A stretch of DNA of 37,907 nucleotides from Phoronis australis (Eukaryota; Animalia; Phoronida): positions 120,667 through 158,573 of the forward strand of contig NMRA01000768.1 of assembly GCA_002633005.1 (NCBI GenBank). Reading direction: 5' to 3'. The position numbers and the translations under genes are program-made. The notes beneath the pieces are model-generated. The model had not been told where the DNA came from. It saw only the letters and a program-made list of their open reading frames with translations, and made no database searches. Within the stretch, counting starts at the first letter, position 1. Each line of letters begins with the position of its first letter. This document shows, one piece after another, positions 10,404 through 35,812 of the stretch.

Positions 10404-10811
10404 TCAAGAGTTGTTGGGATGCATAAGGTCACTCGACACTGAACGAGGGTGAGAAAACATTGACAATGTACACAAAGCAACAACAACCGTGACAGCCACA
10501 AACAACAGTCGGTCAATCACGCAGAGCAGAACTCTCCACTCTTTGGCAATTAGGGCTTCAATTTCTCGACTCTTTTCTGCTCTTCCTAAGGCAAGGGCAC
10601 ATTTGGCGATTTCGTCGCCGCTATCTGAAGTGGCGAACCCTGGAACGCTTGTCTGGCCAGACTGCGAAGACGACGTAGAGGCTTCGTTTCTTGGCGAAGA
10701 AACTGGAGGAGCTGTCTCTACAGTCGGGTCGACGTTGTAAACAATAGCGTGGCCAGAATCCCCCAAACCGACTTCCACAAAAAGATACCGGCTCATCACG
10801 TCGAGAAATAT
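10404..10811 (-). CDS. Exon 11: intracellular loop, MA helix, M4 and stop
   Basis: IFLDVMSRYLF...EWRVLLCVIDRLLFVAVTVVVALCTLSMF matches the EW..(V)xDR motif before M4 of cation-type Cys-loop subunits. Acceptor ttccctttag. Confidence 0.95.
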   Translation of the reverse strand: MFLDVMSRYLFVEVGLGDSGHAIVYNVDPTVETAPPVSSPRNEASTSSSQSGQTSVPGFATSDSGDEIAKCALALGRAEKSREIEALIAKEWRVLLCVIDRLLFVAVTVVVALCTLSMFSHPRSVSSDLMHPNNS

Positions 10812-34800: not shown

Positions 34801-35812
34801 GAGTCATTTGTCAGTGTTGGTTGAGATTATTGCTAACAGGTAGCTCTGCTGTGCGTGAGTTTGGAATCCTGCCTAATCCAAGATCACATGAATATTCATT
34901 AAGTCAATCAAGCGAAATGTTTTTTGCAGCGCCTCACCATCACCTACTTTCTCCTTAACTGGAAAAATGTTTCACAGAATCGGAGGAATGTGTGAATGGT
35001 TAATCATTTGTTGTTTGGTGAATATAATCGCCAATAATTGGAAGATTTTGGTTAAAATTAGTATTCTTTTATGAACATTTAATTTGACTTAGTGTAATAC
35101 AAATTTTTATCACCGTGAACGTGATTACTGAAGTGCCATGGTGTACTCCAAGTTTACGCATACGTGTACGAGATCTTGAGATTAAGCAGGATTTAGGCAC
35201 AGTAGCTCCGTATTCATAACCATGAGTGACGACTGTACTCTGCGGGTGTTCAATGGAATAGGACGAAATGGAATATGTATTCCAACCTCTCGTATGAAAA
35301 CCTAAATTACCCGTATCAGATTGTCCTACCAGGTGGCAACAATTACCCCACGCTCGAGAAATTAGTAGCCTGCCAAAATCTGAGTTATTAACCTACAATG
35401 TGCCTCTAACGACGCACAGAAACGCCCACCCCCATGATATTCCCCTATAAAAGAGTGGGTTGTCCTCCTGTTTCTCATTTGTGTGATTGACGCGAGATTA
35501 ATAATTTTCAATAAATCGGACTTCCAAACTCGACAGAGCTCAGTTTGCTTGGGATTCGACCTTTCGTGAAACAATCCATGCAACGCCATGGAATCTGGGG
35601 TCATAGGGTCAATAAGAGTTCTACAAACCAATGCCAAGAAACCATTCTATAAAGAAACGACCGCTGTACTCATTTAGACAGCACAGTAACGATAGTCTAT
35701 GGAATGAATGAAACTTACTGTTATGAAAGCTGGCGTTTGCATATCTGGTGAATAATCCAAGCAAGAAGACCACGAAGAATGAACGGGGCAACGCCATTAT
35801 GGCTGCAGACAT
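10404..35812 (-). CDS. Multi-exon gene model: signal peptide + F-type lectin domain + Cys-loop ligand-gated ion channel subunit (divergent nAChR-like, non-alpha), 648 aa
   Basis: Exons 35812-35719, 34094-33876, 32163-31909, 30979-30852, 21652-21608, 20075-19939, 17856-17676, 16352-16079, 11754-11668, 11309-11191 and 10811-10404. All introns are GT-AG with phases 1,1,1,0,0,2,0,1,1,0, and the exons join into one open frame of 1947 nt. The channel part and the lectin part are each well supported; the join between them is inferred. Confidence 0.75.
11191..11309 (-). CDS. Exon 10: M3 and post-M3 segment
   Basis: VRYYSAIAVLDTLCIAVSTVLSNVALARHKTTRIPDLAKW. Acceptor gtatttcag, donor gtaggt, phase 1-0. 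Not present in the supplied ORF track. Confidence 0.88.
11668..11754 (-). CDS. Exon 9: M2 pore helix and M2-M3 loop
   Basis: GFILLVTAILYVLLDEYLPKGHLAVPNL. 87 nt, phase 1-1, acceptor ttcttgtag, donor G|gtaagc. Confidence 0.93.
12021..12092. repeat. (GA)n/(GGGA)n purine microsatellite; its end is also seen at 1-16
   Basis: Direct inspection. Confidence 0.9.
12078..15735 (+). repeat. Near-identical direct duplication, copy B (in the intron between the M1 and M2 exons)
   Basis: Near-identical ORF set repeated in the ORF track. Identity ends abruptly after GGTGGTTAAAC. Confidence 0.97.
12172..14879 (+). mobile_element. Decayed Ty3/gypsy LTR retrotransposon, copy 2 (intronic, antisense to the channel gene)
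   Basis: Same motifs and same disablements as copy 1, offset by 12077-12079 nt. Confidence 0.88.
16079..16352 (-). CDS. Exon 8: loops F and C, pre-M1, M1 and start of M2
   Basis: VQLHLSDNE...FLFKLERKQSYYVHVFVLPAVLSMFAVPLIFIIPFYHEDKLSLG has the LxRxxxYY motif, the M1 proline and the (E/D)KxSLG motif. Phase 0-1. Confidence 0.95.
17676..17856 (-). CDS. Exon 7: Cys-loop signature and loop B
   Basis: NGTV...KTACIMDMKDFPYDSHQCSIKMMSYYFNASQ contains C-x13-C with FPYD. Acceptor tttattgtag, donor CAG|gtaaga, phase 2-0. Confidence 0.95.
18521..19621 (-). mobile_element. Non-autonomous Kolobok-like DNA transposon with a THAP remnant
   Basis: Perfect 15-bp TIR AGGAGAATGCCACCC/GGGTGGCATTCTCCT with TTAA on both sides. 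Minus-strand CIVPACPN..GICFFQLHREPKMLRKCLAVVK (THAP-like) at 19276-19461. Internal two-copy repeat at about 19010-19120. Confidence 0.85.
19939..20075 (-). CDS. Exon 6: Cys-loop extracellular domain (WxD..W, loop A region)
   Basis: SWYDPIFVWNLAERNGTESFMYDLTKAYGQHLIPFYTYDPFVYPV. Acceptor ttttttttcag, donor gtgagt, phase 0-2. Confidence 0.88.
20248..20335. repeat. Imperfect (CA)n microsatellite
   Basis: Direct inspection. Confidence 0.9.
21608..21652 (-). CDS. Exon 5: 45-nt Cys-loop exon (beta2, loop D) DPESRYLTINIDLET
   Basis: Poly-T acceptor aatttcag, donor gtacgt, phase 0-0. Aligns by eye with the 45-nt DEKNQxLTTNxWLxx exon of nAChR genes. Confidence 0.85.
22268..22368. repeat. (CA)n microsatellite, about 50 units
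   Basis: Direct inspection. Confidence 0.97.
22562..22891 (-). mobile_element. hAT transposase C-terminal dimerization-domain remnant (ZMYM1-like type)
   Basis: VFPTICVAFRLLLTIAFSMPSCGRS-RVKLIKTRVRSPKSQERLTNPAFMSIENE matches the FPN..ALRIxLTxPxxxASxERSFSKLKLIKTxLRSTMxQERLxxLAxxSIE consensus. Confidence 0.85.
22897..23042. mobile_element. hAT-type MITE with 8-bp TSD CATTTGTA
   Basis: Termini TAGTGCTGTAGTG...CACTGCAGCACTG; CATTTGTA at 22889-22896 and 23043-23050; homologous (inverted) to 27705-27859. Confidence 0.88.
23885..23950 (-). repeat. Degenerate tRNA-like (SINE) head
   Basis: TAGTGCAGTGGTAAAGC A-box-like and GAGTTCCAGTC B-box-like motifs. Confidence 0.4.
24621..26770 (+). mobile_element. 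5'-truncated non-LTR retrotransposon with restriction-like endonuclease (HERO/NeSL/R2 group, most like HERO)
   Basis: QKGGIPGYSGCLEH, WLDMANAYGSMPH, QKGIMTGCTIS, YVDD, KYLG; CCHC knuckle CSSCGERGTLQHVLSSC; WRHD; RPDLVLWS..IVELTVPWE..ERKRLKY..PVEVGCRG. Stop at 25666 and several frameshifts; short CAA-rich tail. Confidence 0.93.
26981..28640 (+). mobile_element. Kolobok-like DNA transposon remnant with about 160-bp imperfect TIRs and a THAP domain
   Basis: TTAA at 26977-26980 and 28641-28644; 26981-27142 is inversely similar to about 28477-28640; THAP motifs MPHCCCVPEC..LHRFP..VCGNHF..DY..KKGAIPS at 27246-27530, frameshifted. Confidence 0.87.
27705..27859. mobile_element. hAT-type MITE with 8-bp TSD CTGTGCTG, nested in the Kolobok-like element
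   Basis: Termini CAGTGCAGTAGTGG...CCACTACAGCACTG; CTGTGCTG at 27697-27704 and 27860-27867. Confidence 0.88.
29620..29718. repeat. (TG)n/(TCTG)n microsatellite
   Basis: Direct inspection. Confidence 0.95.
30852..30979 (-). CDS. Exon 4 (probable): N-terminal helix and beta1 of the Cys-loop extracellular domain
   Basis: (E)ILATKNSLPLIFLKILSGRYYYPTDICTPVKVQLNSLEFLQS. Strong acceptor tttttatgtttcag and donor gtaagt. At 128 nt and phase 1-0 it has the phase and approximate size expected for nAChR exon 2. Sequence similarity is weak (PVKVQL resembles the PVxVxxxL strand). Confidence 0.6.
31909..32163 (-). CDS. Exon 3: F-type lectin domain, C-terminal half
   Basis: (A)DRLHDFKIFVSN...NLCNFQQAPLGLGEIRRIACESRVYGQYVYIQ...ILTLCEVRV. 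Splicing to exon 2 completes RGDCCADR (RxDx4R). Acceptor tttttaccatag, donor G|gtaaag, 255 nt, phase 1-1. Confidence 0.92.
33545..33612 (+). repeat. Degenerate tRNA-like (SINE) head
   Basis: GTGTTGTAGTGGTAAAGC followed by GGGTTCAAACT at tRNA-like spacing. Confidence 0.35.
33876..34094 (-). CDS. Exon 2: F-type lectin (FTP) domain, N-terminal half
   Basis: NSALSKPAFQSS...ARAVDG...SCTQTESEHNPWWMVDLQNVYAIISVTIANRGDCC is a typical fucolectin pattern. Acceptor cttcctcttacag, donor G|gtaata, 219 nt, phase 1-1. Confidence 0.92.
35719..35812 (-). CDS. Exon 1: signal peptide MSAAIMALPRSFFVVFLLGLFTRYANASFHN
   Basis: ATG, a basic residue, hydrophobic core FFVVFLLGLF, an A-N-A cleavage-like motif, and a consensus donor A|gtaagt in phase 1 that matches the next exon. 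Confidence 0.75.

Follow-up and report, generated by a model that had tools for sequence, protein, structure and literature searches.

An expressed fusion of an F-type lectin domain to a Cys-loop channel subunit in Phoronis australis

Of the 116 Cys-loop proteins described in the lobster, 66 belong to an unknown class of ligand-gated ion channels (LGICs), the 'immune-LGICs', that carry C-type lectin, pentraxin or LDLa domains (Polinski et al. 2021; available text of PMC8221624). Lectin-headed Cys-loop channels are therefore already known, as gene models; some are expressed in brain and antennules, and their authors consider the architecture unique to lobster and related crustaceans (same text). 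F-type lectins are known for domain shuffling, and their mosaic partners include C-type lectin (CTL), pentraxin, CCP and FA58C domains and single transmembrane segments (Vasta reviews PMC5712786 and PMC12221842); the word 'channel' is absent from the accessible text of both reviews. Here we describe a gene, on the minus strand of a 37,907-nucleotide stretch of Phoronis australis contig NMRA01000768.1, in which an F-type lectin (FTP) domain is joined to a Cys-loop channel subunit. This stretch is called the window, and all positions are whole-window coordinates. A preliminary description of the DNA had stated that the ligand-binding domain of metazoan pentameric channels normally follows the signal peptide directly, and had named no characterized fusion of this kind. 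The lobster channels published in 2021 overtake this statement in part (available text of PMC8221624), while an F-type lectin head on a Cys-loop channel appears to be unreported in the literature searchable here.

The window has 41% GC, long introns and microsatellites, and is animal genomic DNA. Rebuilt from its coordinates, the gene has the layout proposed for it earlier: 11 exons, separated by 10 introns that are all GT-AG, form one frame of 1,947 coding bases and 648 residues with a single terminal stop. The domain order is signal peptide, F-type lectin, Cys-loop extracellular domain and M1-M4. Hydropathy peaks at the amino terminus (residues 1-23) and at four membrane segments (412-439, 440-464, 476-500 and 605-635). 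The intron phases are, in order, 1,1,1,0,0,2,0,1,1,0, and the phase-1 donor reported directly after the lectin domain is present at 31908. For exon 7 (exons are E1 to E11 below) acceptors at 17856 and 17817 are both in frame; 17856 seems preferable, judging by the length of this region in known channels. The 3' untranslated region continues past the stop codon at least to position 10000, as indicated by read depth.

The fusion is supported by four RNA runs of one species, which were compared with two stretches of the window: X2, X3 and X4 are raw reads from three samples of one study (about 18-19% of each run was read), and X1 consists of assembled contigs from a second study. E4 follows the lectin after only 929 bases and includes the first strand of the channel domain, which makes E3>E4 the critical lectin-channel junction. 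This joint (31909>30979, skipping 929 bases, CT..AC on the plus strand) is crossed by 3, 9 and 6 reads in X2, X3 and X4, from 2, 8 and 5 start sites, respectively; all 18 reads are first-mate on the plus strand, matching minus-strand RNA in a stranded library. Since an X1 contig contains it as well, the joint named in the preliminary description as a first check is spliced in all four runs. The other joints seen (reads in X2/X3/X4) are E1>E2 (0/1/0, and an X1 contig), E2>E3 (5/9/7, and a contig), E5>E6 (4/2/5), E7>E8 (0/3/6), E8>E9 (4/2/5), E9>E10 (5/2/7, and a contig) and E10>E11 (6/0/12). In total, joints lie at the modelled boundaries of 8 of the 10 introns, with E4>E5 indirect and E6>E7 unseen. 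Depth in X3 is 6.5 on E2, 10-15 on E3, 7-8 on E7 and 3.8 on E11, and in X4 it is 5.3, 7-10, 4-6 and 10.8 on the same exons. The lectin exons are thus covered as deeply as the channel exons, and inclusion of the lectin is the main form. The fusion is real and expressed as one spliced gene, and it is the main transcript of that gene.

Intron 4 (9.2 kb) is where a division between a secreted-lectin gene and a channel gene, or a misassembly, would have to be sought, as it holds mobile-element remnants and nine chance ATG-hydrophobic stretches and as E4>E5 is without a direct joint. However, the only one of these stretches that has a donor is phase 1, whereas the acceptor is phase 0, and both the splicing of E3>E4 in every run and the location of the first channel beta-strand in E4 argue against such a division. 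For the second joint proposed for checking, 30852>21652 (E4>E5), support is indirect and comes from X1. The X1 contig that spans E3-E4 (256 bases, depth 12.3) has 51 unplaced letters beyond E4, and X1 depth in the E5 bin is likewise 12.3 over exactly 45 bases; the E5 depth in X1 is exactly what this contig would give, and the contig therefore appears to run from E4 into E5. Transcripts in which the lectin ends as a separate mRNA, with the channel using a signal exon of its own, had been named as the outcome that would contradict the fusion. No lectin-only 3' end was found, as depth is 0 in all four runs at 31592-31820, just downstream of the E3 donor, and a search of the 929-bp intron 3 for a signal-peptide-like ATG exon, with E1 recovered as positive control, returned no candidates. 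No usable signal exon thus lies between lectin and channel, and the reading as two genes or an artefact, already largely refuted, is extremely improbable.

A possible lectin-less form was also considered. An alternative signal exon in intron 2 (32709-32654, minus strand, with ATG, hydrophobic stretch and phase-1 donor) was rejected, as its depth is 0, 0, 0 and 0.1 in the four runs. No lectin-less E1>E4 joint is among the joints listed; E1 depth is low.

Pfam was run exon by exon on 10 exons, E5 being too short, and 3 of the 10 gave a match: E2 with PF22633 (E 5e-11) and also PF00754, E7 with PF02931 (E 2.6e-9, 37.3 bits against a cut-off of 26) and, weakly, E11 with PF02932 (E 0.007). The other seven are without a family. 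On its own, E4 has no channel match in Pfam, PDB or BLAST, and E6 and E9 have none in PDB, whereas a profile made from 12 of the channel proteins that were fetched matches residues 220-503 with E 4.5e-36.

Homology of the head to solved F-type lectins spans about 140 residues of E2 and E3. E2 matches FBP32 (3cqo) with E 2e-21 and eel agglutinin (AAA; 1k12) with E 1e-13, and E3 matches their C-terminal halves weakly (E 0.004 and 0.2); an ESM Atlas search with E3 only restated the family. E2 contains Asp60-Gly61 of the putative calcium motif, Cys71, Gln73 at a His position, Arg100, Asp102 and Cys103-Cys104, and E3 contains Arg107, Cys138, Cys155 and Cys179-Glu180. By analogy with AAA, the cysteines present would pair as Cys71/Cys179 and Cys138/Cys155, next to the vicinal Cys103-Cys104. 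The fucose motif is His...Arg-x-Asp-x4-Arg/Lys, represented in AAA by His52, Arg79 and Arg86 (available text of PMC5712786). The equivalents of Arg79/Arg86 (Arg100/Arg107), the Asp102 between them, the vicinal Cys pair and the calcium-site Asp/Ser/Glu are kept, with roles as given in the same text. Within the cation motif h2DGx, Ala58-Val59-Asp60-Gly61 fit, and Ser70, Cys179 and Glu180 are kept. Four of the five allele differences listed for E2 in X1 are synonymous, a small sign of purifying selection, and the variants listed in reads include none at the Gln73 codon, one of the six X1 contig differences being unplaced.

The channel part has its Cys-loop (Cys-x13-Cys, with Phe-Pro-Tyr-Asp) inside the PF02931 domain. 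Nicotinic alpha subunits are marked by a vicinal Cys-Cys in loop C and a Trp in loop B. Neither feature is found here: loop C has the single Cys399, weakly aligned (E 0.08) to the non-alpha Torpedo delta subunit, and at loop B there is Tyr347, aligned to a Tyr of GABA-A alpha2. Cation-selective Cys-loop channels have an acidic residue at M2 -1' and lack a Pro-Ala-Arg motif. Asp440-Lys441 (-1', 0') align, in the same weak alignment, to Glu-Lys of Torpedo delta, and by this rule the M1-M2 linker, which has no Pro-Ala-Arg motif, shows the cation-type pattern. M2 has Phe at 6', Leu at 9' and Glu at 20', and M4 is closest to the alpha7 nicotinic acetylcholine receptor (nAChR; E 0.004). Placement in a subfamily is not firm, because E7 alone scores best in PDB against GABA-A alpha subunits (E 3e-4). 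ESM Atlas with E8 returned LGIC clusters at 0.96 with a low recognition score and only restated the family. Taken together, these features indicate a very divergent, non-alpha, nicotinic-like Cys-loop subunit of the cation type.

These observations suggest a protein in which lectin heads would tether or concentrate a cation channel on glycan-coated surfaces (mucus, matrix or microbes) while a small ligand gates the pore; to this proposal we give about an even chance. The FTP-headed subunit would assemble into a cation-channel pentamer, alone or with partners, and its ligand would probably not be acetylcholine at the principal face of this subunit. About 13 residues separate the end of the lectin from the top helix, so that, going by the geometry of the established folds, each head would be placed over the channel and would turn its sugar face outward. 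A homopentamer would show five heads and a heteromer fewer. With Gln for His the head would likely bind fucose weakly, or another sugar, and the avidity of several heads could compensate.

Several observations weigh against this proposal. In the RNA, E4 and E5 never fell within one compared stretch, and the link across the 9.2 kb between them is indirect only; no E6>E7 joint is among the joints listed in any run, though both exons are covered; E1>E2 is seen in a single X3 read and an X1 contig; and the whole mRNA is not covered by any single read in the four runs. In the head, Gln73 aligns to the triad His (His52 of the eel lectin) in both 1k12 and 3cqo, which breaks the canonical fucose motif and makes fucose binding uncertain, and the x of the cation motif is Ile instead of a small hydrophilic Asn/Asp/Ser. 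Departures from the motif may point to altered specificity or to loss of sugar binding (available text of PMC5712786). In the channel, the best full-length identities to the fetched proteins are 19-25%, with a very divergent extracellular domain, and such extreme divergence, together with the bulky Phe at 6', implies that the predicted channel may not conduct alone. Finally, no orthologue of the fusion was found with single-exon queries of 60-91 residues; with queries of this kind, the absence of relatives is weak evidence. The preliminary description was right about the gene and its FTP domain and missed the change of the triad His to Gln73. By its residues the domain is a homologous F-type domain with an atypical motif rather than a canonical fucose lectin. 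The glycan-, mucus- or microbe-sensing or glycan-anchored receptor envisaged earlier holds up as a fusion, and the functional part is weaker than stated now that the fucose-binding His is seen to be a Gln.

The change at the first triad position also fits a head that has lost sugar binding and instead mediates protein interaction, clustering or trafficking for an otherwise ordinary orphan Cys-loop subunit. F-type domains with broken triads are known, for example in oyster bindins and Drosophila CG9095 (available text of PMC5712786). However, the sugar pocket still has its two Arg, its Asp and its vicinal Cys pair, and a Gln could still hydrogen-bond, so that we regard a non-binding head as possible but unlikely.

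Rather than anchoring the channel, multivalent binding of glycans to the lectin crown might move the top helices and open the pore directly, which would make the protein an ionotropic glycan or microbe receptor. The tether from lectin to top helix is short (about 13 residues), and the loss of the acetylcholine-site hallmarks (the single loop-C Cys and the Tyr at loop B) makes the usual ligand unlikely. On the other hand, a flexible tether would transmit force poorly, the fucose motif is altered, and direct gating by glycans has not been demonstrated for the lobster chimeras in the available text of PMC8221624. Direct gating is therefore improbable in our judgement, and tethering by lectin heads on a ligand-gated pore is preferred.

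A last possibility is a non-conducting or accessory subunit, that is, either a membrane-anchored lectin whose channel scaffold is in decay or a partner that supplies other subunits with a lectin head. Such a subunit could explain the extreme divergence, the failure of word searches with E7 and E8 to find a relative, and the Phe at 6'. Moreover, E9, the exon of the M2 pore helix, is left out without loss of frame by 4 reads with 2 starts (joint 11309>16079, E8>E10), in X4 only among the three raw runs, and the product would be without pore lining. However, E9 is included in all three raw runs, and the subunit retains the Cys-loop, the four membrane helices and the Asp at -1', Leu at 9' and Glu at 20'. 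We consider a non-conducting role very doubtful, and keep the tethered cation channel as the preferred reading.

The exon structure suggests how the fusion may have arisen. E2 and E3 are flanked by phase-1 introns and form a phase-1/phase-1 module, and their removal leaves an in-frame, ordinary subunit of 490 residues. A two-exon lectin module may thus have been shuffled into an ordinary channel gene, in the phase-1 intron that follows its signal-peptide exon. The sizes of E5 (45 nt) and E9 (87 nt) equal those of vertebrate alpha7 exons 3 and 8, and fit an old nicotinic-type host gene. The fusion is likely an independent version of the lobster lectin-bearing channels.

The homologue searches returned neither a close relative nor a second FTP-bearing channel with single-exon queries. 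In the extended searches E7 gave no candidate, none of 32 candidates passed for E8, and 2 of 76 passed for E2, both lectin-only by Pfam. E7 has 26 matches among 1.84 billion representatives, mostly tandem mis-joined channel models that score through repeated domains, and none of the 26 carries an F5/8, lectin, pentraxin or LDLa domain. The fetched channel matches (15 of the 26 were looked up) come from nematodes, molluscs, arthropods and one hemichordate. The window holds no second copy of the gene by tblastn of the model protein. A full-text literature search, which reaches few subscription papers, found no FTP-Cys-loop fusion, and automatic annotations of this architecture may exist. In the accessible text of the papers that came closest, both terms occur in unrelated contexts (PMC13554239), PF00754 is one of 83 Pfam families found with a keyword set for GABA receptors, its carrier protein not being specified (PMC4992803), and terminal domains were discarded from the analysis (PMC4795631).

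Table 1. Exons of the fusion gene in window coordinates, with their content and the evidence for each
Exon	Position	Strand	Content	Evidence
E1	35812-35719	-	ATG and predicted signal peptide, residues 1-31; phase-1 donor	Hydropathy of residues 1-23; E2 joint
E2	34094-33876	-	N-terminal half of F-type lectin, residues 32-104	PF22633/PF00754; 3cqo and 1k12 alignments; joints
E3	32163-31909	-	C-terminal half of lectin, residues 105-189; phase-1 donor	Weak 3cqo/1k12 matches; E3>E4 joint
E4	30979-30852	-	Residues 190-232: short linker, predicted top helix, first beta-strand of Cys-loop extracellular domain	Profile alignment
E5	21652-21608	-	45 nt, residues 233-247, extracellular domain	E5>E6 joint; X1 depth 12.3
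E6	20075-19939	-	Residues 248-292, extracellular domain, Trp-x-Asp-Pro motif	Profile alignment; read depth ~2.5-3.3
E7	17856-17676	-	Residues 293-353: Cys-loop Cys326-Cys340, Tyr347 at loop-B aromatic position	PF02931; E7>E8 joint
E8	16352-16079	-	Residues 354-444: loop C with single Cys, M1, M1-M2 linker (Asp440 -1', Lys441 0')	Torpedo delta alignment; joints
E9	11754-11668	-	87 nt, residues 445-473: M2 pore helix, Phe 6', Leu 9', Glu 20'	Hydropathy; joints
E10	11309-11191	-	Residues 474-513: M3	Hydropathy; joints
E11, coding part	10811-10404	-	Residues 514-648: intracellular loop, M4, stop	PF02932; alpha7 nAChR M4 match

Several repeats lie in and around the gene. Two copies of a 3.66-kb stretch, 99.9% identical, lie at 1-3656 and 12078-15735, the second copy filling most of intron 8. 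It carries broken gag/pol fragments resembling those of long terminal repeat (LTR) retrotransposons (zinc knuckle, E 0.003) and is either a recent insertion or an assembly duplication. On the plus strand of intron 4, opposite to the gene, 24522-26641 holds broken frames presumably of a non-LTR retroelement, and we take 27204-27380 (+) to be a THAP-like Cys-rich fragment and 7470-8107 (+) to be an endonuclease-like fragment of a LINE-type (long interspersed nuclear element) element, all judged by motifs; Pfam gave no match for these three fragments. A degenerate GGGTTA (TTAGGG-type) array of 51 copies with 68% match lies at 37582-37892, about 1.8 kb upstream of the start codon. The telomere-type repeat of arthropods is TTAGG, and the array is a weak hint against an arthropod source and no proof of a chromosome end. 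At 9249-9449, some 1 kb beyond the stop codon, a 31-base N gap adjoins a 41-base tandem repeat of four copies.

Among known systems, DeCLIC, from bacteria, is a pentameric channel that has additional N-terminal domains of the jelly-roll (beta-sandwich) type, without the Cys-loop disulfide and without signal-exon shuffling. A comparable layout, with an added N-terminal beta-sandwich on a pentameric channel, is predicted for the Phoronis protein. The head resembles AAA (1k12) and FBP32 (3cqo) in sequence homology, Cys pattern, the calcium-site Asp, Ser and Glu and the Arg-x-Asp-Cys-Cys-x-x-Arg segment, and differs in the Gln at the His52 equivalent. The channel part is like non-alpha nicotinic-type subunits and divergent invertebrate nAChR expansions, such as the cephalopod chemotactile receptors, in its Cys-loop, cation-type M1-M2 linker, M4 nearest to alpha7 and remodelled ligand pocket; unlike them, it is only about 20-25% identical to any match. 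The cephalopod receptors are divergent nAChRs that became contact chemosensors (accessible part of bioRxiv 2026.05.05.723003). A lophotrochozoan nAChR survey groups 41 genes 'with other functional domains', naming only dynamin and GAIN (Jiao et al. 2019; PMC6896357), and neither 'FTP' nor 'lectin' occurs in its available text.

The closest likeness is to the lobster immune-LGICs, which are also animal channels with PF02931 and PF02932 and a lectin or pattern-recognition domain, and for which a sensory or neuro-immune role has been proposed (available text of PMC8221624). The Phoronis head, however, is a single F-type domain, a fold unrelated to the C-type lectin, pentraxin and LDLa heads of the lobster set, and the word 'fucolectin' is absent from the main text of that paper as available. 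An RNA-verified fusion with an unrelated lectin fold suggests that lectin-headed channels evolved more than once, and repeated origin in turn speaks for a selected function. The gene is also a compact test case, with a small, well-understood head on a 13-residue tether that a two-exon deletion removes in frame, so that gating, modulation and anchoring can be told apart directly. An F-type crown by which sugars on microbes, mucus or prey would open a Cys-loop channel, evolved independently of the crustacean C-type-lectin chimeras, is a long shot; if it proved true, animals would have repeatedly wired lectins onto fast ion channels.

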